DNA of 64,000 bases from the NCBI GenBank assembly GCA_045631645.1, contig JAZQVC010000038.1, positions 1,856 through 65,855 of the forward strand, in the 5' to 3' direction. Shown one piece after another: positions 10,197 to 35,807 of the stretch; position 1 is the stretch's first letter, and each line of letters opens with the position of its first letter. A program made the position numbers and the translations under genes. Source of the DNA: Oscillospiraceae bacterium. GTDB taxonomy: Bacteria > Bacillota > Clostridia > Oscillospirales > Oscillospiraceae. Under the pieces are notes generated by a model. That model made no database searches. It saw nothing but the letters and a program-made list of their open reading frames with translations, and had not been told where the DNA came from.

Positions 10197-10300
10197 CGTT
10201 TCTCACCTCGTATCAAGCTATTTTACTACCATTTATATATAATGTCAAAACCCTATTGCATAATTTATCGAATGTGGTATACTTGCATTAATAATACAGA

Positions 10301-10424
10301 TATCTTCAGGGCAGGGTGAAAATCCCGACCGGCGGTATAGTCCGCGAGCGCTTGCGCATGAATCGGTGTAACTCCGATACCGACAGTAATGACCATTGGT
10401 CAAAGTCTGGATGGAAGAAGATAA
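10301..10424 (+). promoter_or_regulatory. FMN riboswitch (RFN element)
   Basis: cttcagggcagggtgaaaatcccgaccggcggtatagtccgcgagcg ... ccgacagt ... agtctggatggaagaag matches the RFN core. P1 pairs tatcttc with gaagata. It sits upstream of a riboflavin ECF S-component gene. Confidence 0.9.
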
Positions 10425-10454
10425 TAGCGATTTTTTACCTTCGCTTAATCTTTG

Positions 10455-10497
10455 TGCATCTGCAGATATATCTGTATGATGCATTTTTATTTTTTGG
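10455..10497 (+). terminator. Riboswitch expression-platform terminator
   Basis: tgcatctgcagata/tatctgtatgatgca hairpin followed by tttttatttttt. Confidence 0.6.
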
Positions 10498-10508
10498 AGG
10501 TAGTTCCC

Positions 10509-11060
10509 GTGAATGTTAAGCACCGTACCCGCAAACTCACCGCAATGGCTATTATGATTGCGATATCCGTTGTGTTGGTTTATTTTATTCATATCCCCAT
10601 CTTCCCTCAGGTCGCTTTTCTTGAATATGACCCCGCAGACATCTCAATTCTCATCTGCGGCTTTGCCTTCGGACCCGTTGCTGGAATTTGCGTAACAATT
10701 ATAGCATCCCTTATTCAGGGGCTCACCGTCAGCGCCCACAGCGGTGTTTACGGAATACTCATGCACGTTATTGCAACAAGCGCCTTTGTTCTTGTTTCTT
10801 CGATCATATATCGCCGGCATAAGAGCAAAAAAGCAGCAGCCATTGCGCTTATTTGCGGTGTTGCTGCAATGGTTATCGTTATGGTTCCTGCCAATCTTTT
10901 TATCACTCCTTACTTTATGGGAGTTCCCAGAAGCCTTGTCGTCGATCTTCTTGGCTTTATCGTTGCATTTAACGCCATTAAAGCCGGAATTAACGGATTT
11001 CTAACCTTCCTGCTTTATAAAAGCGTATCCAAACTTTTCAAACATTTTGAAGTTAAATAA
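10509..11060 (+). CDS. ribU: ECF transporter S component, riboflavin-specific (RibU)
   Basis: GTG start 8 nt after GGAGG. About 6 TM and about 183 aa. Directly downstream of the FMN riboswitch. Confidence 0.85.
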   Translation: MNVKHRTRKLTAMAIMIAISVVLVYFIHIPIFPQVAFLEYDPADISILICGFAFGPVAGICVTIIASLIQGLTVSAHSGVYGILMHVIATSAFVLVSSIIYRRHKSKKAAAIALICGVAAMVIVMVPANLFITPYFMGVPRSLVVDLLGFIVAFNAIKAGINGFLTFLLYKSVSKLFKHFEVK

Positions 11061-11100: not shown

Positions 11101-13380
11101 TTAAAGCTTGCTTCTAATTATCTTGCCGCTGGTGGTCTTGGGAAGTTCAGTGCGGAAGACAATGATTCTGGGATACTTATAGGGAGCGGTACGCTTCTTA
11201 ACATACTCCTGAATCTCAGCAGCGAGCTCATCGCTACCCTCATTTCCCTTAGTCAGAACGATGCTGGCTTTGACAACCTGTCCACGTACGGGATCGGGTT
11301 CAGCGGAGACACCGCATTCAAGAACATAGGGAAGTTCCATAATAACGGACTCGATTTCGAAAGGTCCGATTCTGTAACCGGAGGACTTGATAAGGTCATC
11401 AGCGCGGCCGACATACCAGAGGTAGTCATCCTCATCGCGCCATGCAAGGTCACCGGTATGGTAGAATCCGTCATGCCAAACAGCAGAGGTTTCGGCTTCA
11501 TTTTCAAAATAACCCATGAAAAGTCCGCAGGGAGCGCCATCGCTGACCTTTATGCAGATTTCACCGGGTTCGCCATCGGCAGCCTCTTCGCCTTCAGCAG
11601 TAAGCAGGTGGACATCATACAGGGGGTTAGGTTTACCCATAGAGCCGATTTTAGGCGCCATACCTACATAGTTACCGATAACGCAGGTGGTTTCGGTCTG
11701 ACCAAAACCTTCCATGATGGAGAGTCCGGTATGCTCGCGGAAGCGGTTGAAAACTTCGGGGTTCATTGCCTCGCCGGCAGTGGATGCATGCTTAATAGTG
11801 CTGAGGTCATATTTGCTGAGATCTTCTTTAATGAAGAAGCGATACATGGTGGGAGGCGCACAGAAGGTGGTTATGCCGTACTTCTTGAACATCGGCATAA
11901 TGTCATCGGCATGGAAACGGTCGAAGTCATAGACGAATACAGCTGCTTCGCAGAGCCACTGACCGAAGAGCTTGCCCCACATAGCCTTTGCCCAGCCGGT
12001 ATCGGAAATTGTGAGATGAAGTCCATCGGGATCAACACAGTGCCAATATCTTGCAGTAACGAAATGTCCGAGAGGGTATTTGCAGTTATGTGCTGCAAGC
12101 TTGGGATAGCCGGTAGAGCCGGAGGTAAATATCATCATCATAGGATCATCGCCGCAAATACTGTCCGCAGTGCGGGCGAAGCGGCTTGAATACATCTCGA
12201 ACTCATCGTCGAAGCAGTGCCATCCTTCGCACTTACCATTGACAACGATCATGTTTTTGATATTACCGTATTTTTCAATAGCGCTGCGGGATTCGATGGT
12301 GGATGTTCCGTCAGCAGTGCAGATAATATGCTTAACGTGAGCAACATCAAAGCGGTAGAGATAATCCTTCTCGAGAAGCTGGTCAACGGCCGGAATAGCA
12401 ACTGCGCCAAGTTTTTCAAGACCAATAAGTATGGGCCAGAACTGCCAGTTGCGGCGGAGAACAAGCATTACAGCATCGCCTTTTTCAATTCCCAGAGAGC
12501 GGAAATAGTTAGCAGCTCTGTTGCTCATCTTTTTCATTTCGCCAAATGTGAAACGATGCTCGCTCTTATCAGCGCCAATATGCACCATTGCAAGCTTGTC
12601 AGGCTGCTTTTCTGCTATTGCGTCAACAACATCGAAAGCGAAATTGAAACGATCGGTGTTTTTGAAAGAAATGCTCTTGAGAACACCGCTGCCGTCTTCA
12701 ACAGGCTCGATGAAGTTTTCCCAAATGCGCTTTTTGCCTGCTTCGCGGGTTGCGGTAATTGCAGGAACTGCGGCGCGCTTGGGCTGAACTTCCTCATCGG
12801 GAGTGAGAACAATAGCATAAAACTCGCAGTCGGTGCCATTGGTTGCAATGAGACCGTGAGGAGTTGTGGAGTCATAGTAAACGGTATCGCCGGGGCCAAG
12901 GATCTCGATATGATCACCAATCTGAACCTTCAGATAACCGCTTATAACGATATCGCACTCCTGACCTTCATGAGTGGTCAGTTCAATAGGCATCAGCTGA
13001 GCTTCAGGGGAAAACTTGCTGTAAACATAAAGAGGCTCTGCAATTCTGTTGCGGAATCTATGAGCAAGGTTATAGTAGGTCATTCCGTGGGCCTGCTCAA
13101 CGCGCTGTCCTTCCCCTCTTCTTGTAAGGGTATAGCTGCTGAGTCGGGGCGCAGTGCCTTCAATAAGCTCTGTAACGTCGACGCCAAGAGCCTGGGCGCA
13201 CATATAAAGGAATGCGAAGTCCAGATCCTGCTCGCCGGCCTCATAGGAAAGATACTCATCAAGAGATATGCCAATCTTCTTGGCCATATAATCTTCACTG
13301 TAACCAAGTATTGAGCGCAGTTCCTGAATACGACTGGCGATTTCCAGAATTTTGAACTGCAAAGCATTTTTTGTCTGCAT
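11101..13380 (-). CDS. Fusion protein: XRE-type HTH + cupin + AMP-forming (medium-chain-type) acyl-CoA ligase, paralog 1
   Basis: 759 aa. N-terminal HTH (LRSILGYSEDYMAKKIGISLDEYLSYEAGEQD), then a cupin (HEGQECDIVISGYLKVQIGD...PGDTVYYDSTTPHG). Ligase motifs follow: FTSGSTGYPK, GQTET, YHTGD, SSGYRIGPFEIES, SGKIIRSKL. Confidence 0.9.
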   Translation of the reverse strand: MQTKNALQFKILEIASRIQELRSILGYSEDYMAKKIGISLDEYLSYEAGEQDLDFAFLYMCAQALGVDVTELIEGTAPRLSSYTLTRRGEGQRVEQAHGMTYYNLAHRFRNRIAEPLYVYSKFSPEAQLMPIELTTHEGQECDIVISGYLKVQIGDHIEILGPGDTVYYDSTTPHGLIATNGTDCEFYAIVLTPDEEVQPKRAAVPAITATREAGKKRIWENFIEPVEDGSGVLKSISFKNTDRFNFAFDVVDAIAEKQPDKLAMVHIGADKSEHRFTFGEMKKMSNRAANYFRSLGIEKGDAVMLVLRRNWQFWPILIGLEKLGAVAIPAVDQLLEKDYLYRFDVAHVKHIICTADGTSTIESRSAIEKYGNIKNMIVVNGKCEGWHCFDDEFEMYSSRFARTADSICGDDPMMMIFTSGSTGYPKLAAHNCKYPLGHFVTARYWHCVDPDGLHLTISDTGWAKAMWGKLFGQWLCEAAVFVYDFDRFHADDIMPMFKKYGITTFCAPPTMYRFFIKEDLSKYDLSTIKHASTAGEAMNPEVFNRFREHTGLSIMEGFGQTETTCVIGNYVGMAPKIGSMGKPNPLYDVHLLTAEGEEAADGEPGEICIKVSDGAPCGLFMGYFENEAETSAVWHDGFYHTGDLAWRDEDDYLWYVGRADDLIKSSGYRIGPFEIESVIMELPYVLECGVSAEPDPVRGQVVKASIVLTKGNEGSDELAAEIQEYVKKRTAPYKYPRIIVFRTELPKTTSGKIIRSKL

Positions 13381-13414: not shown

Positions 13415-13664
13415 AAAAAAGTCCCCGGAAATCCGGGGACGGAATATACCGCGGTACCACCCTGGTTGCGGATTATAAATCCGCCACTTTTAGAGTCTTA
13501 TAAAACTCATATTGCTCTTACGCGGCTTCACGGGAGGCTCTACTAACCTTTCGGTTTTCTGCTCTCCGACTCCGGAGCGACAAGTTTCGGAAACAAACGC
13601 AATCTGCTTTCACCGACCGCAGACTCTCTGATGCGTCATAAATCCAACTCTCTCCATCATTGCC
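13415..13664 (-). promoter_or_regulatory. T-box leader 1 (tRNA-sensing transcription attenuator)
   Basis: Minus-strand RNA shows GGC-AAUGAU-GGAG (K-turn), AGAGU, the CAGAGAG AG-bulge, the GGUGAAAGC distal loop, the conserved T-box AACCAGGGUGGUACCGCGG (13449-13467) and the terminator GUCCCCGGAUUUCCGGGGAC + U6. Confidence 0.85.
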
Positions 13665-13698
13665 TTTAGTGTATTAAATTGATAAATAACTTTAAAAA

Positions 13699-13726
13699 GT
13701 ATAAACGATAGCCCAAATTTCGTCAA
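13699..13726 (-). promoter_or_regulatory. Putative sigma-A promoter for T-box leader 1
   Basis: Minus strand TTGACG-17 nt-TATACT, immediately upstream of Stem I. Confidence 0.45.
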
Positions 13727-13742: not shown

Positions 13743-14429
13743 TCAAAGGCTTTCTATAAGCGCAGGTATTTCATCAAGACTCTTGACTACAAACTCGGGA
13801 ACGATGTCCTCTCTGCCCTGCTTACCACTGGGATTAAACCAACAGGTATGGATTCCAACGTTGAGACCGCCCTTGATATCACTTGTGAGACTATCGCCGA
13901 TTATTATCATCTCACTCTTCTCATAAGGAGGCATCTGGGCGAAGCATTTATCGAAAAACTCTACACGGGGTTTATCAAATCCAACACGCTGAGAAATAAA
14001 TATTTCCTCAAAGAAATGACCTATGTCTGCGCTTTTAAGTCTGGGCACCTGAACGGATTCATTTCCGTTAGTGACCAAATAAAGCTTATATTTTCCATAG
14101 AGGGACTCAAGAAATTCAACAGCACCGGGAATGAAATAGTGTCCTATACCCAGATTGGTATTATAAAGCTGCTGAGTGGCGGCGCTGTCTCCCTCTACTC
14201 CAAGTGCCTCAAAAAGTCTGTCAAAACGATATACAAGGACCTGCTCTCTTGTAAGCTCTCCGCGTTCAAGCATCTCCCAGTGGCGCTTATTTATTTCGCT
14301 ATAAAGACTAATGGTCTCTTCATTAGGCTCAATTCCCACTTCGCGAAAGGTTTTCCGGATTGCAACATGTTCTGCCTTGGTGAAATCAAGCAAGGTATCA
14401 TCGCTATCAAGCAAAACCGCTTTAATCAT
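13743..14429 (-). CDS. HAD-superfamily hydrolase, YjjG-like nucleotidase subfamily
   Basis: DSDDT motif I (LLDSDDTLLDF), TNG motif II and GDS..SDI motif IV. 228 aa. Confidence 0.8.
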   Translation of the reverse strand: MIKAVLLDSDDTLLDFTKAEHVAIRKTFREVGIEPNEETISLYSEINKRHWEMLERGELTREQVLVYRFDRLFEALGVEGDSAATQQLYNTNLGIGHYFIPGAVEFLESLYGKYKLYLVTNGNESVQVPRLKSADIGHFFEEIFISQRVGFDKPRVEFFDKCFAQMPPYEKSEMIIIGDSLTSDIKGGLNVGIHTCWFNPSGKQGREDIVPEFVVKSLDEIPALIESL

Positions 14430-14484: not shown

Positions 14485-16791
14485 TTAGAGTTTGTTTCTT
14501 ATGATCTTACCGCTGATGGTCTTGGGAAGTTCATCTCTGAACTCAACAATTCTGGGATACTTATAAGGAGCAGTGCGCTTTTTGACGTATTCCTGAATCT
14601 CTTTGGCAAGCTCATCACTTGGCTGAGTACCCTTTACAAGGGTGATGCAGGCCTTTACAACCTGTCCGCGAATTTCATCGGGAGCTGCGCAAACGCCGCA
14701 TTCAAGAACATAGGGAAGTTCCATGATAACGGACTCGATCTCGAAAGGTCCGATGCGATAGCCGGAGGATTTGATAACATCATCAGCGCGTCCGACATAA
14801 TAGAAATATCCGTCCTCATCGCGCCAAGCGAGGTCACCGGTGTGGTAATAATCATCGTGCCAGCTATTATGTGTTGCATCAGGAGCATTGAAATAGCCCT
14901 TGAAGAGACCGCATGGAGCGCCATCGCCGGTGTAAATTACAATTTCGCCGGTTTCACCGTCGCCCACAAGTTCGCCATCGAGGTTCATAAGCTTAACATC
15001 ATACATGGGATTGGCCTTACCCATAGAACCAAGTTTGGGTCTTGTTCCAACAAAGTTACCGATAGTGAGGGTGGTTTCGGTCTGTCCAAATGCTTCCATA
15101 ATAGTAAGACCAGTTGCTTCCTTGAAACGGTTGAAAACTTCGGGGTTAAGAGCCTCGCCGGCGGTAGTGGCATGCTTGATGGAGCTAAGATCGTACTTGC
15201 TGAGATCTTCCTTGATGAAGAAACGGTACATAGTGGGAGGTGCGCAGAAGCTGGTTATGCCGTATTTAGCAAACATAGGCATAATGTCATCTGCTGCGAA
15301 TCTATCAAAGTCATATACAAAGGTTGCTCCACCGCACATCCACTGTCCATAGAGTTTGCCCCAAAGAGCCTTACCCCAACCGGTTTCAGAAATTGTGAAA
15401 TGAACGCCGTTGGGATCGATATTATGCCAGAAACGGGCAGTTACATAGTGTCCGATGGGATATCTGTAGCTATGGTCAACAGCCTTGGGATAGCCGGAAG
15501 TTCCGGAAGAGAAAAGCATCAGCATAGTGTCATCGCCACAGGGACTATCCTCGGTGCGGCTGAAACGGCTGGAATACATATCATATTCATCGTCAAAGCT
15601 GTGCCATCCTTCGCGAGTGCCGCCTGCAATAACCTTAAGACGGACACTGGGGCAGCGTTCCATTGCCTTCTCTGCTTCAACAGAGCTTGTTCCGAAGGCG
15701 CTGCAAACAACTGCAGAGACATTTGCGGCATTGAAGCGATATTCGAAGTCTTTTTCAACAAGCTGGTCGGTTGCAGGTATTGCAATAGCGCCAAGCTTAT
15801 GCAGACCAACAATGATGGGCCAGAATTCCCAGTTACGGCGGAGAACAAGCATTACGCGCTCGCCTTTCTTTATACCAAGAGCACGGAAATAGTTGGCTGC
15901 TCGTGCGCTCATCTTCTTCATCTGGAGGAAGCTGAAGCGGCGCTCATTCTTCTCGCGATCGATATGTATCATTGCAAGGCGATCAGGTTCGCGCTCTGCA
16001 ATGGCATCAACAACATCAAAGGCAAAGTTGAAGCTATCAGTGTTGGAAAACTTGATGCCAACGGGAGTTCCTTTTGCGTTCACCTCAGCAGTGATGAACT
16101 TATCCATGTAGTTGGGGAATTCCTTGACCTGAGGCAGTTCAATTGCTTCGGCCGCCTTAACGGCAGAAGCGTTAACCATCTTTCCATGGCTCCATATAAG
16201 TTCTTCATCTTCATCAGGAAGAACGATGGCGCAGAAAACGCAGTCAGAACCTCCAACAGCAATCATGCCGTGAGGAGTTGAGGAGTTATAGAAGATGCTG
16301 TCGCCTGGAGCAAGAACTTCGGTGTGTTCTCCTATGCGAACCTTGAGGGAGCCTTCAATGACAATGTCGAACTCCTGACCTGCATGAGTATCCTGCTCGA
16401 TAGGCTGAGACTGCTGTGCCTCGGAATACTCATAACGAACCCAATAAGGGTCGGCCTTGCGGTTTTTGAACATGGGAGCAAGACTCTGAATAGTAATTCC
16501 CTGCTCTCTTGCAGTGAGCTGTCCGTCTCCGCGTCGGGTAACGGTATAGCCGCTGAGGCGAGGAGCACTGCCGCGAAGCAGCTCCATCATCTCAACATCA
16601 AAAAGCTCTGCACATTTATGAATATAACTAAAGGGCAGGTCTGCCTTTGCATTTTCGTAAAGCTCACATTCAGCGAGGGAGAAGCCGGTAAGCTCTGCCA
16701 TCTGCTCAATAGAGTAGCCGCAGTCAAGTCGCAGGGACTTAATTCGCAGCGCAACCTCCATCATAAGCATTCCACTGTTTGTAGTAGCCAT
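14485..16791 (-). CDS. Fusion protein: XRE-type HTH + cupin + AMP-forming (medium-chain-type) acyl-CoA ligase, paralog 2
   Basis: Start reassigned to MATTNSG (ATG at 16791, SD GGAGG 8 nt upstream), because the 872-aa tracked ORF runs through the T-box leader. Same three-domain layout and ligase motifs as paralog 1: FSSGTSGYPK, GQTET, YHTGD, SSGYRIGPFEIES, SGKIIRNKL. Confidence 0.9.
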   Translation of the reverse strand: MATTNSGMLMMEVALRIKSLRLDCGYSIEQMAELTGFSLAECELYENAKADLPFSYIHKCAELFDVEMMELLRGSAPRLSGYTVTRRGDGQLTAREQGITIQSLAPMFKNRKADPYWVRYEYSEAQQSQPIEQDTHAGQEFDIVIEGSLKVRIGEHTEVLAPGDSIFYNSSTPHGMIAVGGSDCVFCAIVLPDEDEELIWSHGKMVNASAVKAAEAIELPQVKEFPNYMDKFITAEVNAKGTPVGIKFSNTDSFNFAFDVVDAIAEREPDRLAMIHIDREKNERRFSFLQMKKMSARAANYFRALGIKKGERVMLVLRRNWEFWPIIVGLHKLGAIAIPATDQLVEKDFEYRFNAANVSAVVCSAFGTSSVEAEKAMERCPSVRLKVIAGGTREGWHSFDDEYDMYSSRFSRTEDSPCGDDTMLMLFSSGTSGYPKAVDHSYRYPIGHYVTARFWHNIDPNGVHFTISETGWGKALWGKLYGQWMCGGATFVYDFDRFAADDIMPMFAKYGITSFCAPPTMYRFFIKEDLSKYDLSSIKHATTAGEALNPEVFNRFKEATGLTIMEAFGQTETTLTIGNFVGTRPKLGSMGKANPMYDVKLMNLDGELVGDGETGEIVIYTGDGAPCGLFKGYFNAPDATHNSWHDDYYHTGDLAWRDEDGYFYYVGRADDVIKSSGYRIGPFEIESVIMELPYVLECGVCAAPDEIRGQVVKACITLVKGTQPSDELAKEIQEYVKKRTAPYKYPRIVEFRDELPKTISGKIIRNKL

Positions 16792-16828: not shown

Positions 16829-17101
16829 AAAATAAAAACCCGCCTCAAAGATACAAGACCTTGAGACGAGCTAAACATTAACCCGCGGTACCACTCAAAT
16901 TGCGATTTGAAAAATCGCCACTCATCGGACTCTGTCAAGCCCTTGGCATTAACGCAGCCTTCACGTGGACTCTTACCCGATTTTACCCGCTCGGAATCCC
17001 GACTCGGAAGTGATGGACATATTGGCGTCTTCGTCATCCGCTTGCAGCAAAACGCGGACTCTCTGTGTCGGAAGGACATCCATGTCGTCTTCGTCATTGT
17101 C
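16829..17101 (-). promoter_or_regulatory. T-box leader 2 (tRNA-sensing transcription attenuator)
   Basis: Minus-strand RNA shows GAC-AAUGAC-GAAG (K-turn), the CAGAGAG AG-bulge, the conserved T-box AAUUUGAGUGGUACCGCGGG (16882-16901) and a terminator hairpin CGUCUCAAGG/CUUUGAGGCG + GGUUUUUAUUUU. Confidence 0.85.
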
Positions 17102-17111
17102 ATTTGAAGAT

Positions 17112-17140
17112 ATTAAAGCACTTACATTATTTTTTGTCAA
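17112..17140 (-). promoter_or_regulatory. Putative sigma-A promoter for T-box leader 2
   Basis: Minus strand TTGACA-17 nt-TTTAAT just upstream of Stem I. Confidence 0.45.
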
Positions 17141-17224
17141 TCACTTTAGTTATTAAATATATACAAAAAGCGTATTTTATTTATCAAATTAAATTGATGA
17201 AGAGTAAAAAATTATCAAACTTTC

Positions 17225-17253
17225 TTGACGGAGCAAATTAAGGGATATATAAT
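17225..17253 (+). promoter_or_regulatory. Putative sigma-A promoter of the P-loop/oxidoreductase operon
   Basis: TTGACG-17 nt-TATAAT, 46 nt upstream of the 17299 start. Confidence 0.5.
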
Positions 17254-17298: not shown

Positions 17299-18003
17299 AT
17301 GACGAATTTTCTCTCGCTTATGGCACATGGGCCAAGAAAAATTGCCGTTACAGGGCATTTCGGCTGCGGTAAAACCGAGTTTGCCGTATCCCTTGCAATG
17401 GCATTGGCAAAATTAAATATTCCAAATCTGGCTCTTGCGGATCTTGATCTCGAAAACCCCTATTTCCGCTCAAGAGAGAGAATGACCGAGCTTGAGAACG
17501 CCGGTATAAAGGTTTATTCCGACCCTTTCAAAGGTAAAAACGGCAGCGAGCTTCAAACACTGGATCCTGCCATAAGAGCGCCTCTCGAAAATCCCGATTG
17601 CAGAGTTATTCTCGATGCAGGCGGCGACTTTACAGGCGCAATGATACTTAATCAGTATTCAAAATATCTTAAGGAAGATACTCAGCTTCTTTATGTACTC
17701 AACAAAAACCGCCCCGGAACAAGCGATCTGGAAGGTGCGCTCTTTCAGCTGAAAAGCATTGAAGAAACCACCTCTCTTTCCGTAAGCGGCATAATATCCA
17801 ATTCTCATCTTATCCGATATACAAGCGAGGAAGATATTATTGAAGGCTGGGAATTTGCTCAGGAAGTGAGCAAAGCAACCAGCATACCCGTTCTTTGCGC
17901 ATGCTGCATGGAACAACTTGCTCCTTTAGTCAGCGGAAAAGGATTTGACGTGTTCCCCATCGGAATGTACATGAGGGACAGCTATCTTGACAAACAAGTT
18001 TGA
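17299..18003 (+). CDS. SIMIBI-class P-loop NTPase of unknown function, first gene of the 2-oxoacid oxidoreductase operon
   Basis: Walker A GHFGCGKT, Walker B-like VILDAGGD, and a possible degenerate NKxD (LNKNR). 234 aa. Confidence 0.6.
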   Translation: MTNFLSLMAHGPRKIAVTGHFGCGKTEFAVSLAMALAKLNIPNLALADLDLENPYFRSRERMTELENAGIKVYSDPFKGKNGSELQTLDPAIRAPLENPDCRVILDAGGDFTGAMILNQYSKYLKEDTQLLYVLNKNRPGTSDLEGALFQLKSIEETTSLSVSGIISNSHLIRYTSEEDIIEGWEFAQEVSKATSIPVLCACCMEQLAPLVSGKGFDVFPIGMYMRDSYLDKQV

Positions 18004-18024
18004 TTCACATATTTGGAGGTAATT

Positions 18025-18264
18025 ATGTTTAAGAGATTCAAAGTCCTATTTAACAGAGACAAGTGCAAGGGCTGCGAGCTTTGCGTAAACTTCTGCCCTA
18101 TGAAGATAATAGAAATGGACAAAAGCAGCGTCAACAGCAAGGGCTATCATCCCGCTTCCATTGACGAGGACAATATGGAGTGCTGCGTAGGCTGCTCCAG
18201 CTGCGCCCTGATGTGCCCTGACTGCTGCATCTCCATTTATCAGCTTGAGGAGGGTGAAGAATGA
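18025..18264 (+). CDS. 2-oxoacid:ferredoxin oxidoreductase delta subunit (2x[4Fe-4S] ferredoxin)
   Basis: CKGCELCVNFCP and CVGCSSCALMCP cluster motifs. ATG 7 nt after GGAGG. Confidence 0.85.
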   Translation: MFKRFKVLFNRDKCKGCELCVNFCPMKIIEMDKSSVNSKGYHPASIDEDNMECCVGCSSCALMCPDCCISIYQLEEGEE

Positions 18265-19337
18265 AAAAGATACTTATGAAAGGTAATGAGGCATTTGCTG
18301 AGGCTGCCATTCGCGCAGGCTGCAAGTGCTACTGCGGCTATCCCATCACCCCTCAGAATGAAATACCCGAATACATGAGCCACGAGCTTCCCAAGGCAGG
18401 CGGCGCATTTGTGCAGGCCGAAAGCGAGCTTGCAGCTGTCAATATGGCCTACGGCGCTGCAGCAAGCGGCGGAAGAGTTTTCATCTCCTCTTCCTCCCCC
18501 GGAATCAGCCTTATGCAGGAAGGTCTCGGCTTCATCTGTTCTGCCGAAGTTCCCCTTGTTGTACTCAACGTCTCCCGCGGCGGCCCCGGCGTTGGCGGCA
18601 TTCAGCCCGGTCAGGCAGACTATAATCAGGTTACCCGCGGCGGCTATAACGGCGACTGCAAGATCCCCGTATTTGCACCCGCAGGAATTCAGGAATGCGT
18701 TGACCTTATTTATGAATGCTTCGACCTCGCTGAAGAATACCGCAATCCTATGATGATTCTTGCCGACGGTATGATGGGACAGATGATGGAGCCCATTGTT
18801 CTTCCCGAAGCTAAGGGTATTACCCCTGTTGATAAAATCTCCGAGGAAAAGCCCTGGGCCATCACCGGCACAGACTCTCACCCCGGCAGAAATGTAATCT
18901 ATTCTCTGCGTATGGAGCCCGATGTTCTTGAAAAGCATGTTTATCATCTCTTCGAAAAGTACGAAAAAGCAGAGAAAGAGCTTGTGCGTTACAAATCTCA
19001 GGGTCTTGAAGATGCTGAAATTGTTTTTGTTGCATTCGGAACTATGAGCCGTCTTTGCGCAGAAGCAATTGAGCTTCTTGGCGAAAAAGGCATTAAGGCA
19101 GGTATGATCCGTCCTATCAGCCTTTGGCCCTTCCCCGACAAGGCTTTTGACGAAATCGGCGATAAGTGCAAAATTGTTATTTCCACTGAGCTCAGCATGG
19201 GTCAGATGCTTGCGGATGTTAAGTCCGCCGTGGCAGGTCGTTGGAAATGCGGTCTTATAAACCGCACCGGTGGCATTGTCCCCTCCTCTCTTGAGATCGT
19301 CGAGAGAGCAATCAAACTTTGGGAGGAAGCCAAATGA
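18261..19337 (+). CDS. 2-oxoacid:ferredoxin oxidoreductase alpha subunit
   Basis: 358 aa: MKGNEAFAEAAIRAGC..YPITPQNEI...QAESELAAVNMAYGAAASG, the typical Kor/Vor/Por alpha N-terminus. Overlaps delta by 4 nt. Confidence 0.9.
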   Translation: MKKILMKGNEAFAEAAIRAGCKCYCGYPITPQNEIPEYMSHELPKAGGAFVQAESELAAVNMAYGAAASGGRVFISSSSPGISLMQEGLGFICSAEVPLVVLNVSRGGPGVGGIQPGQADYNQVTRGGYNGDCKIPVFAPAGIQECVDLIYECFDLAEEYRNPMMILADGMMGQMMEPIVLPEAKGITPVDKISEEKPWAITGTDSHPGRNVIYSLRMEPDVLEKHVYHLFEKYEKAEKELVRYKSQGLEDAEIVFVAFGTMSRLCAEAIELLGEKGIKAGMIRPISLWPFPDKAFDEIGDKCKIVISTELSMGQMLADVKSAVAGRWKCGLINRTGGIVPSSLEIVERAIKLWEEAK

Positions 19338-20080
19338 AAACCATATTTGAACCCACAAAAGGCATCGTCCCTGTTGACAACAGCTACTGCCCCGGTTGCT
19401 CCCACGGCATTGCCCATCGTCTCATAATGGAATGCCTTGAAGAACGCGGCCGCCTTGGCAAAACCATCGGCGTTGTCCCCATCGGCTGCTCCATCAACGC
19501 TCATCACTTTATGAACATCGACATGTGCGAATCCACCCATGGACGCGCCCCTGCAATCGCCAGCGGTATTCGCCGCGTGCATCCCGACAAGACCGTTTTC
19601 ACCTATCAGGGTGACGGCGACCTTGCATCCATTGGCGCAGGCGAAATTGTACACGCAGCCCATCGCGGCGAGAAGTTTACTACTTTCTTTATCAATAACG
19701 CCATTTACGGTATGACTGGCGGCCAGATGGCTCCCACCACCCTTATCGGACAGAGAGCAACCACCGCTGTTGACGGTCGCACCAAGGAACAGGCAGGTCT
19801 GCCCCTCAGAGTAAGCGAAATGCTTGCAACCATTGACGGCGCTGTTTTTGTTGAGCGCGTTATGCTTAATAACCCCGCTAATATCCGCAAGGCAAAAAAG
19901 GCCATTCACAAGGCTTTGGATGTTCAGGACGCAGGTCTTGGTTTCAGCTTTGTTGAGTTTCTCTCCGTTTGTCCCACCAACTGGGGCTACAATCCTTATG
20001 ACGCCATAAAGTGGATGGAGAAGAACATGGCCGAATATTATCCCATTGGAAATTTCAAGTGCCCGGAGGAAATGAAGTAA
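19334..20080 (+). CDS. 2-oxoacid:ferredoxin oxidoreductase beta subunit (TPP-binding)
   Basis: CPGCSHG, GDGD and NNAIYGMTGGQ motifs. ATGA overlap with alpha. Confidence 0.9.
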   Translation: MKTIFEPTKGIVPVDNSYCPGCSHGIAHRLIMECLEERGRLGKTIGVVPIGCSINAHHFMNIDMCESTHGRAPAIASGIRRVHPDKTVFTYQGDGDLASIGAGEIVHAAHRGEKFTTFFINNAIYGMTGGQMAPTTLIGQRATTAVDGRTKEQAGLPLRVSEMLATIDGAVFVERVMLNNPANIRKAKKAIHKALDVQDAGLGFSFVEFLSVCPTNWGYNPYDAIKWMEKNMAEYYPIGNFKCPEEMK

Positions 20081-20081
20081 T

Positions 20082-20609
20082 ATGAAACGCAAACTCTTTT
20101 TCGCCGGAAGCGGCGGTCAGGGCACTCTCGCACTGGGCCAGATGATTGCAAAAGCCGCTATGGATGAGGGAAAAGAAGTCACCTGGCTTCCCTCCTATGG
20201 ACCTGAAATGCGCGGCGGCACCGCAAACTGCACTGTTGTTGTCTCCGACAAGGCTATAAGCTGCCCACTCATTAACGATGCCGATGTACTCGTCGCCATG
20301 AATCTCCCTTCCCTGCGCAAATTTGAGAACATGGTAAATCCCGGCGGCGTTATCCTTATGAACACTTCTCTTATTCCTGAAAAATGCCTTCGCGATGATG
20401 TCAAGGTTGTAGAAATTCCCTGCAATGACCTCGCAAAGGAACTGGGAAATGAAAAATGCGCTAACATCATTATGCTTGGCGCCATTTTGAAGGAAACCGA
20501 AATTGTTTCCCTCGAGACCATTCATGAGCAGCTTGAGCATATGTTCTCCGGACGTAAAGCCGCTTTCCTGCCCCTTAACAAGAAGGCACTTGACATCTAC
20601 ACCAAATGA
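20082..20609 (+). CDS. 2-oxoacid:ferredoxin oxidoreductase gamma subunit
   Basis: 175 aa: AGSGGQGTLALGQMIA...YGPEMRGGTANCTV, the gamma-subunit signature. Confidence 0.9.
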   Translation: MKRKLFFAGSGGQGTLALGQMIAKAAMDEGKEVTWLPSYGPEMRGGTANCTVVVSDKAISCPLINDADVLVAMNLPSLRKFENMVNPGGVILMNTSLIPEKCLRDDVKVVEIPCNDLAKELGNEKCANIIMLGAILKETEIVSLETIHEQLEHMFSGRKAAFLPLNKKALDIYTK

Positions 20610-24258: not shown

Positions 24259-24360
24259 GTGGCAGCGGATGCGGGAAAAGCATCGCACACCTATAAAGGT
24301 GCTTCGTCCTGAGACAACTCCCATCCTCAGGCACTTGACGCGCAGTTCCCTACTCTGTCC
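24259..24360 (-). promoter_or_regulatory. THF (tetrahydrofolate) riboswitch
   Basis: Minus-strand RNA ACAGAGUAGGGAACUGCGCGUCAAGUGCCUGAGGAUGGGAGUUGUCUCAGGACGAAGCACC...GCAUCCGCUGCC closely parallels the folT-motif THF aptamer as I recall it (AGAGUAG..CGCGUUAAGUG..GAAUGGGAUG..ACGAAGC..GCAUCCGCU). Confidence 0.85.
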
Positions 24361-35727: not shown

Positions 35728-35807
35728 GGTTCAATCCCCCTTTTTCAATTTAACGCTTTAACGAAATAAGTGTAATTATATATAATATAAGCTTTTATTA
35801 AAAAATG

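Follow-up and report, generated by a model that had tools for sequence, protein, structure and literature searches.

Two ligase paralogs share an N-terminal helix-turn-helix and cupin module

The 64-kb stretch analysed here (the window), taken from contig JAZQVC010000038.1 of an Oscillospiraceae bacterium (assembly GCA_045631645.1), encodes on its minus strand two paralogous proteins, P1 and P2, in which an XRE-like helix-turn-helix (HTH) domain and a cupin barrel precede a complete acyl-coenzyme A (acyl-CoA) ligase. An earlier note on this DNA had read the first 195 or so residues of both proteins as an HTH followed by a cupin, and had proposed that the fusion operates as a BirA-like trigger enzyme. 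The comparative analysis outlined below reveals that this N-terminal module and one clade of ligases resembling the Methanosarcina acetivorans enzyme MacsMa form a conserved one-to-one pair, fused into a single polypeptide in the Clostridia lineage of the window, and tentatively points to a role for the module at the level of the protein. The two genes and their parts are as follows.

11101-13380, minus strand: P1, 759 residues, XRE-like HTH, cupin and MACS-type acyl-CoA ligase, of the valine T-box type
13153-13335, minus strand: HTH-like alpha domain of P1 (residues 16-76; Pfam HTH_3 and HTH_19)
12811-12978, minus strand: Cupin_2 barrel of P1 (residues 135-190; Pfam), with invariant H137, E141 and H175
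12736-12801, minus strand: linker of P1 (residues ~194-215), variable and of low confidence in the structural model
11104-12729, minus strand: ligase part of P1 (residues ~218-759)
14485-16791, minus strand: P2, 768 residues from MATTNSG, of the same make-up as P1 and of the isoleucine T-box type
16201-16791, minus strand: N-terminal module of P2, with the HTH at residues 13-74 (16570-16755) and the cupin at residues 131-189 (16225-16401)

Pfam searches located the HTH_3, Cupin_2 and AMP-binding domains in both paralogs and confirmed their boundaries, and the spans that the earlier note had assigned to the module (12790-13380 and 16200-16791) fit the first ~197 residues of P1 and P2. The HTH matches are weak, yet above the Pfam cutoff of 23 bits for HTH_3 in both proteins, with 26.7 bits in P1 (residues 18-72) and barely enough, 23.3 bits, in P2 (residues 17-70); HTH_19 (28.9 bits in P1, cutoff 30.2) and HTH_31 remain below their cutoffs. 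The cupin matches are clear, at 42-44 bits for a cutoff of 27.2 (P1 residues 135-190, 42.4 bits; P2 residues 131-189, 43.7 bits). The ligase part comprises AMP-binding (residues 254-625 and 197 bits in P1; 193 bits in P2) and AMP-binding_C (residues 675-753 and 74 bits in P1; 76 bits in P2). All the ligase motifs quoted in the earlier note (FTSGSTGYPK, YHTGD and SSGYRIGPFEIES) are present in the translation of P1, which also carries the C-terminal SGK lysine, and P2 reads FSSGTSGYPK, YHTGD and SSGYRIGPFEIES. AMP-binding and AMP-binding_C domains that bear these motifs and the catalytic lysine are the hallmarks of short/medium-chain acyl-CoA synthetases of the ANL superfamily, to which the ligase part belongs.

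The start of P2 was assigned to the ATG at 16791, preceded by GGAGG. A longer open reading frame of 872 codons, starting at 17103, was considered and rejected because its 5' part traverses the T-box leader of this gene. In the AlphaFold2 (AF2) model of P1, the linker between module and ligase (residues 194-211) shows a predicted local distance difference test score (pLDDT) below 50.

The module is a one-to-one partner of a ligase clade

A profile scan of species-representative genomes with the N-terminal module returned at least 592 confirmed stretches from the first 600 candidates, many of them with two copies per genome. The best 80 of these (related loci L001-L080) belong to rumen and gut metagenome-assembled genomes (MAGs) of Oscillospiraceae, Acutalibacteraceae, Christensenellaceae and Ruminococcaceae, with a few Lachnospiraceae. 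In these 80 loci the match covers all 759 residues wherever the contig permits, and most of them present two tandem fused paralogs, so that the architecture census envisaged in the earlier note identifies the fusion as a recurrent feature of gut and rumen Clostridia, usually arranged in pairs. All 120 of the best full-length database matches were likewise fused, and their source names were limited to "AMP-binding protein", "cupin domain-containing protein" or "acetyl-CoA synthetase". An assembly or frameshift artefact was considered as an origin for the fusion and rejected, given its full-length presence in all complete related loci and in these 120 hits. A 96% identical protein is present in an Oscillospiraceae/Ruminococcaceae MAG lineage.

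The module also exists as a stand-alone protein. An exhaustive search with residues 1-197 yielded 2105 clusters when the threshold was set to E<=1e-3 and 515 when it was tightened to E<=1e-10. Many of the clusters correspond to proteins of 183-190 residues with 30-45% identity. Genomic context was obtained for eight such split relatives (183-190 residues, 30-42% identical). In seven of the eight, the gene lies directly 5' of a gene encoding an AMP-binding protein of 549-564 residues, and in the eighth (L095) the contig stops 62 codons into the following gene. The two genes are separated by -4 to +28 nt, with one gap of 73 nt, and a 4-nt overlap or a spacing of 2-28 nt is usual. The L090 locus carries two successive pairs (cupin-ligase-cupin-ligase) in one operon with 4-nt overlaps, L091 presents the order vorDABG-cupin-ligase, and L093 reproduces the divergent arrangement of P-loop and vor genes observed in the window. 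Split pairs were found in Bacillota, in Bacteroidota (Muribaculaceae and Prolixibacteraceae) and in Coriobacteriia.

The ligases of split pairs are 46-52% identical to the ligase part of P1. Furthermore, the split HTH-cupin proteins end at about residue 192 of P1 and the split ligases begin at about residues 220-245, placing the gene boundary within the variable linker of P1. The consistent pairing in split loci, the identity of the ligases and the position of this boundary indicate that the fused and split forms are one and the same module. The full-text literature searches carried out for this analysis returned no description of either the fusion or the split pair.

The HTH-like domain is acidic and its recognition helix is variable

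Profile searches against the PDB matched the alpha domain to 1y9q, a PbsX-family regulator, SinR and the 434 repressor. Together with the alignment of the cupin H-x3-E...H pattern with PuuR, these matches uphold the resemblance to small repressors of the PuuR/SinR-cupin type that had been pointed out in the earlier note. The domain is, however, strongly acidic in all members analysed. Its net charge is -7 in P1 (residues 1-76) and -6 in P2, and ranges from -4 to -11 in 22 further fused proteins and from -2 to -11 in 24 split ones, the remainder of these proteins being far less acidic per residue. The controls gave +4 for the 434 repressor, +2 for SinR, +4 for the 1y9q fragment, 0 for 9k3w and +2 to +5 for 92 PuuR orthologues.

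The conservation pattern, computed on 80 Val-type and 46 Ile-type sequences, points in the same direction. The recognition helix reads S/T-x-E/D-E-Y-x-x-C/Y-E-x-G, followed by an invariant Asp, and its exposed positions (40, 41, 44, 45 and 48) present entropies of 1.5-3.4 bits and are occupied mostly by E, V, A or L. Helix 4 (D52-A62) is nearly invariant and residues 80-120 are highly conserved, and the PuuR orthologues show the reverse pattern, with helices 2-3 invariant. At the positions that we take to be the DNA contacts of the 434 repressor, mapped via the profile alignment, the proteins studied here carry acidic or hydrophobic residues. In both respects the module departs from what would be expected of an XRE-cupin transcription factor, namely an HTH of neutral to basic charge and a recognition helix that is polar and conserved. 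Seven of the 13 positions that distinguish Ile-type from Val-type sequences fall within residues 94-117, the poorly modelled segment leading into the barrel, and others lie in or near helix 4 (residues 54, 59, 73 and 78); the sole type-specific position in the recognition helix is the buried residue 46. These data suggest that the domain may have lost DNA binding.

The joint between alpha domain and barrel in P1 (residues 75-113; 13042-13158, minus strand) is among the most conserved parts of the module, including T86, R87, G89, G91, G99, F109 and P116. This segment shows an AF2 pLDDT below 50, and may become ordered only in an oligomer or upon ligand binding.

The cupin barrel retains a putative metal site

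Within the barrel, H137, E141 and H175 are invariant in both paralog types, and Q140, D143, K151, Q153, D165 and S171 are invariant or nearly so. In an alignment with metal cupins, the arrangement of H137, E141 and H175 fits a putative metal site, and these residues are presumably equivalent to the metal ligands of HppE. The alignment with PuuR revealed the same H-x3-E...H pattern in its cupin, and this triad consequently does not separate a regulator from an enzyme.

The AF2 model of the module (pLDDT 74.5) was compared with known structures using Foldseek. The best matches were HppE (E 1.7e-10), HEPD, MPnS, Psf4 and 1y9q, with low template modelling scores (TM-scores) of 0.28-0.39, and the profile of the module matches HppE across both domains (residues 13-183). 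HppE is a non-haem iron enzyme rather than a regulator; it is described as a homotetramer in which a cupin beta domain is combined with an alpha domain made of helices only (PMC9088020), and 1y9q is listed as a dimer (PMC2684688).

T-box leaders and candidate operators

Each of the two paralogs is preceded by a T-box leader. The leaders, promoters and terminators identified in the window are the following.

13432-13669, minus strand: T-box leader 1, ahead of P1 (Rfam 101.5 bits, above the gathering score; specifier GUC, valine)
13421-13440, minus strand: terminator of leader 1 (terminator scan)
13698-13726, minus strand: promoter of leader 1, TTGACG-17-TATACT
16859-17106, minus strand: T-box leader 2, ahead of P2 (Rfam 84.4 bits, E 5e-18; specifier AUC, isoleucine)
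16837-16872, minus strand: terminator of leader 2 (terminator scan)
17135-17140, minus strand: -35 box of the P2-leader promoter
17225-17253, plus strand: promoter of the P-loop/vor operon, TTGACG-17-TATAAT, a good promoter of the sigma-70 type

Both leaders span positions 1-219 of the Rfam model, and leader 2 is full length even though it scores under the Rfam gathering score of 93. P1 and P2 hence both possess a leader, a specifier, the T-box sequence and a terminator, and the T-box layer of control assumed in the earlier note is real, with isoleucine and valine specifiers read off the Rfam alignment. A leucine specifier for leader 1 (CUU, just 5' of GUC) was rejected, since this triplet is equally often UUU in orthologues. 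In the related loci, a T-box core was detected for 118 of 127 fused genes, 30-310 nt (mostly 50-140 nt) 5' of the start codon, and the specifier is nearly always AUC for the upstream paralog and GUA or GUC for the downstream one. The Rfam search of the window detected no T-box on the vor side of the divergent region.

Fused genes without a T-box core include those of two Lachnospiraceae MAGs (L005 and L077) and of L002. The L005 leader (1915-2245) contains short hairpins (CACTG-TTT-CAGTG), and another control element may stand in for the T-box in this locus. Among the split pairs, an isoleucine T-box is present in L095, and the Rfam search detected none in four other loci. The full-text searches returned no account of T-box control of acyl-CoA ligases or of branched-chain 2-oxoacid oxidoreductases, and such genes are absent from the target lists of the T-box surveys consulted.

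The earlier note had proposed operators for the module in the two leader regions, and the analysis located them in the window as follows.

13686-13674, minus strand: candidate operator 1, TTTATCAATTTAA, located 3' of the -10 box (TATACT) and 5' of the T-box
17180-17192, plus strand: candidate operator 2, TTTATCAAATTAA, overlapping the inverted repeat ATCAA-N6-TTGAT
17183-17198: 16-bp palindrome ATCAAATTAAATTGAT, between the divergent P2-leader and vor promoters

The sequences are thus present at the proposed sites, but they are not conserved in related loci. Neither the 13-mer shared by the two candidate operators, TTTATCAAWTTAA, nor the inverted repeat has a perfect copy in any related locus, and of the 125 upstream regions of orthologues, just 4 contain ATCAAWTTAA. 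The window holds a single match to the inverted-repeat pattern, yet 21 of 100 shuffles contained at least one. Enrichment of k-mers in ~110 orthologous promoters relative to dinucleotide shuffles returned only the -35 element, the extended -10 element, the beginning of the T-box and the 3' end of the preceding coding sequence. When these promoters were aligned on the T-box start, their spacers between -10 box and T-box (11-45 nt) contained no common word, and many of the promoters abut the preceding stop codon and have a T-box that starts only 11-16 nt past the -10 box. The palindrome lies ~25 nt 5' of the vor -35 box and ~45 nt 5' of the P2 -35 box, which corresponds to ~70 nt 5' of the predicted vor start and ~85 nt 5' of the P2 leader start, a position that is activator-like rather than repressor-like.

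A third copy of the motif with one mismatch (35741-35753) was discarded as unrelated, lying upstream of serC. Some Ile-type leaders show a loose ATCAAATT / CAATTGAAT flavour that is not general. Words such as CAATTGAAT, AAATTTCAT or AAATCAAATTT lie in the spacer that separates the -10 box from the T-box in many Ile-type leaders (L006, L007, L016, L018, L025, L027, L032, L034, L036, L038, L046, L052, L056 and L068). These words are neither general nor palindromic, and could reflect an RNA 5' element or shared ancestry.

The ligases and their neighbours define a probable branched-chain acid pathway

The earlier assignment of the ligase part to the MACS/ACSM group was corroborated by its matches to PDB entry 3etc, the archaeal medium-chain synthetase MacsMa, which prefers 2-methylbutyrate (604 bits, E 2e-180 for P1), and to human ACSM2A (312 bits). 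The best NCBIfam match for both paralogs was Staphylococcus aureus MbcS, at 406-421 bits (406 for P1) and therefore under the equivalog cutoff of 850. MacsMa takes 2-methylbutyrate as a substrate (PMC10455477). Downstream of the divergent promoter region, the plus strand encodes the following genes.

17299-18003, plus strand: P-loop protein, 234 residues
18013-18264, plus strand: ferredoxin-type delta subunit
18261-19337, plus strand: VorB-family alpha subunit (NCBIfam PRK07119, 469.6 bits, above the cutoff)
19319-20080, plus strand: beta subunit of a 2-oxoacid:ferredoxin oxidoreductase
20082-20609, plus strand: gamma subunit of a 2-oxoacid:ferredoxin oxidoreductase

This vor operon (17299-20609) is divergent from P2 in the window, as it is in L004 and L005. 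The usual order, with synteny in ~50 loci, places all the genes on one strand, as Ile-type ligase, Val-type ligase, P-loop protein and vorDABG.

Based on the similarity to 3etc and MbcS, the isoleucine and valine T-boxes and the synteny with the ferredoxin-dependent 2-oxoacid oxidoreductase (VOR, 2-oxoisovalerate:ferredoxin oxidoreductase), both ligases probably activate short branched-chain acids for the synthesis of isoleucine and valine. They would convert 2-methylbutyrate and isobutyrate to their CoA esters, which VOR would then carboxylate to the keto acids of isoleucine and valine, with transcription set by leaders that would respond to the charging of tRNA-Ile and tRNA-Val. The locus is hence probably a reductive carboxylation route from branched-chain acids to isoleucine and valine. 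A requirement for isobutyrate, 2-methylbutyrate and isovalerate is a long-standing observation in rumen and gut anaerobes, which turn these acids into branched-chain amino acids by carboxylation.

Additional genes accompany this set. The P-loop protein has no NCBIfam match and only a weak Pfam match of the CbiA/MinD type; its gene always lies between the Val-type ligase and vorD in related loci, and it is also found beside the split pair in L093. A gene encoding a YjjG-family HAD pyrimidine nucleotidase (13743-14429, minus strand) separates the two paralogs in the window and is not found between them in related loci. A third acyl-CoA ligase, ~25% identical and without the HTH-cupin module, adjoins the pair in ~14 loci. 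It lies 5' of the Ile-type paralog in L007, L021, L022, L025, L031, L044, L053, L060, L069, L072, L077, L079 and L080, and downstream of the pair on the opposite strand in L005, and it may be a candidate for the activation of another acid, such as isovalerate (leucine). Elsewhere in the window, a flavin mononucleotide riboswitch (10298-10426, plus strand) precedes 10452-11060, which encodes a small membrane protein that may transport riboflavin, and a tetrahydrofolate riboswitch is located at 24261-24359 on the minus strand.

A putative protein-level role for the HTH-cupin module

The reading that we tentatively favour, as the likeliest single one if still short of probable, is that the module serves the ligase at the protein level, as a sensor or a regulatory partner, and is not a reader of operators. 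The N-terminal ~195 residues would consist of an XRE-fold alpha domain and a metal-type cupin acting as the dedicated partner of a single clade of MacsMa-like ligases. The cupin would bind a small molecule of the pathway, and the module would modulate or organise the ligase. The most economical guess for this ligand would be an end product or a keto acid, exerting feedback on the first, ATP-consuming step, and another candidate would be the acid itself, with its carboxylate held through the metal. We infer the loss of DNA binding, the allosteric action, the nature of the ligand (amino acid, keto acid or acid) and the substrates of the ligase. The reading draws on the one-to-one pairing, the tight spacing of the split genes, the repetition of pairs within one operon and the stable fusion in both paralogs, as well as on the acidity of the alpha domain, its inverted conservation pattern, the lack of operators and the precedent set by HppE.

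Several observations weigh against this interpretation. The HTH_3 match exceeds its cutoff, the closest PDB relatives of the alpha domain are true DNA binders, and conserved basic residues (R17, R22, K35 and R/K60) could form a local DNA-binding patch. Those XRE-cupin proteins that have been characterised bind palindromes and repress the enzyme genes next to them (PMC7901475). The puuR gene lies inside its own operon, and gene adjacency would suit a regulator equally well. Perfect matches to the 13-mer number exactly two across the 64 kb of the window, one in each leader region, and with up to one mismatch allowed there are four hits for 0.63 expected; the chance of two AT-rich intergenic regions sharing it is in the order of a few per cent, a rough estimate for a pattern defined post hoc. 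Inverted repeats with arms of at least 7 nt occur near 26% of orthologous promoters, compared with 14 +/- 4% in shuffles, many of them being A/T tracts or terminators of the upstream gene. Lastly, the full-length structure prediction that the earlier note had suggested yielded no confident arrangement of the domains relative to one another (predicted TM-score, pTM, 0.64).

The main alternative, which we consider unlikely, is that P1 and P2 are true trigger enzymes, in which an XRE-cupin dimer bound to an operator would repress or activate the ligase and vor promoters. The acid, its acyl-adenylate or its acyl-CoA, sensed by the cupin or the ligase, would shift the affinity for DNA and thereby add a layer of precursor availability to the T-box. 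The above-cutoff HTH_3 matches in both paralogs and the repressors among the best alpha-domain relatives agree with this proposal, and the base rate of proteins combining HTH_3 and Cupin_2 favours regulators, a class that acts on adjacent metabolic genes through palindromes (PMC7901475). In addition, the divergent vor operon has no T-box of its own, and the two divergent promoters flank a perfect palindrome, of which a half-site reappears past the -10 box of leader 1. Fused genes of L005 and L077 and split pairs of Bacteroidota also lack a T-box and would need another form of control, and Pseudomonas aeruginosa FadD1 provides a precedent for an acyl-CoA ligase operating as a DNA-binding regulator (PMC12754631).

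This proposal is countered by the acidic HTH and by the variability of a recognition helix that is invariant in PuuR orthologues. The motif and the palindrome are missing from orthologous loci, which have no other motif in common, and space for an operator is lacking in most of the orthologous promoters. Moreover, the palindrome, at about -70 and -85, does not occupy the position of a repressor site, and cupin-ligase pairs are duplicated inside a single operon. BirA-like DNA binding, as put forward in the earlier note, is thus not borne out: no conserved operator was found alongside the acidic HTH and its variable recognition helix, and the parts of BirA itself, a winged HTH and the biotin protein ligase fold, are absent from P1 and P2, in which Pfam finds HTH_3, Cupin_2, AMP-binding and AMP-binding_C. 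The step from having an HTH to binding DNA in the manner of BirA is weakly supported, and the BirA-like claim ranks below the protein-level reading in likelihood. A composite version of it, in which the module would be a DNA-binding sensor of the acid or acyl-adenylate, the T-box would report amino-acid demand and the vor operon of the window would be controlled via 17183-17198, forming a two-input AND gate, appears rather doubtful.

An accessory catalytic domain is improbable. Under this proposal, the His/Glu/His cupin would be a metalloenzyme carrying out a step coupled to the activation of the acid, on an acyl-CoA, an acyl-adenylate or a keto acid. The top fold matches are indeed cupin enzymes with an XRE-like alpha domain, H137, E141, H175 and further barrel residues are invariant or nearly so in both types, and the module is paired one to one with its ligase or fused to it, a pattern typical for subunits of enzymes. 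However, the putative pathway of ligase, VOR and transaminase is complete without a further step, enzymes of the HppE type need O2 or H2O2 and are unsuited to strict anaerobes, PuuR shares the same H-x3-E...H while being a regulator, and the TM-scores of the fold matches are low. Least probable is a purely structural module, serving oligomerisation or docking (for instance of the ligase to the VOR complex) without sensing a ligand. Cupin-HTH proteins dimerise via these domains, as illustrated by the 1y9q dimer (PMC2684688) and the HppE homotetramer (PMC9088020), helix 4 and residues 80-120 show interface-like conservation, and fused as well as split forms occur together with VOR genes. Against such a role, the contig stretch seen contains no VOR genes for five of the eight split pairs sampled, and the conserved polar residues of the barrel suggest a binding site.

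Comparison with known systems

The locus type described here provides a concrete gene set for the branched-acid route, composed of two T-box-controlled ligases (isoleucine and valine), a P-loop protein and a VOR operon, in which every ligase of the clade is accompanied by an uncharacterised XRE-fold/cupin partner, on which the full-text searches returned no paper. If the favoured protein-level reading is correct, this partner would provide an acyl-CoA synthetase with a sensor subunit of its own; if instead the module binds DNA, the proteins would constitute a new trigger enzyme layered on a riboregulator. The system also cautions against naming such proteins transcriptional regulators on the strength of an HTH_3 match alone.

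BirA carries a winged HTH directly on a biotin ligase fold resembling class II synthetases, and uses bio-5'-AMP as its corepressor. Like BirA and the trigger enzymes NadR, PutA and RbkR, P1 and P2 combine an adenylate-forming or metabolic enzyme and an N-terminal HTH in one polypeptide, so that gene expression could be set by the ligand state of the enzyme. Unlike BirA, they present an XRE fold, an intervening cupin, a ligase of the ANL superfamily and T-box control, with no operator evidence. In P. aeruginosa FadD1, also an ANL ligase, a fatty-acid ligand modulates binding to promoters (PMC12754631), but DNA binding is attributed to a leucine zipper that forms part of the ligase, and FadD1 has no XRE or cupin module.

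The ligase part of P1 and P2 is an ordinary member of the group formed by MacsMa, ACSM2A and MbcS, and differs from MacsMa and ACSM2A in its HTH-cupin extension, which these enzymes lack as far as their PDB chains show. The XRE-cupin factors (Escherichia coli PuuR, P. aeruginosa PauR, PsdR and ErfA, and 1y9q) share with the module the order of HTH and Cupin_2, the H-x3-E...H pattern in the barrel, a length of ~185 residues like that of the split relatives and a gene location beside or inside metabolic operons (PMC7901475). In contrast to these factors, the module is tied to an acyl-CoA ligase, by fusion or by strict pairing, its HTH is acidic (-4 to -11, versus +2 to +5) with a variable recognition helix, and no conserved palindrome was found for it. 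HppE, HEPD and MPnS, cupin enzymes of phosphonate pathways and the top structural matches to the modelled module, have in common with it a helical N-terminal domain followed by a cupin, at 15-20% identity; their chemistry is oxidative, with no association to ligases. HppE nevertheless sets a precedent, in that a two-domain fold made of an XRE-like domain and a cupin need not bind DNA.

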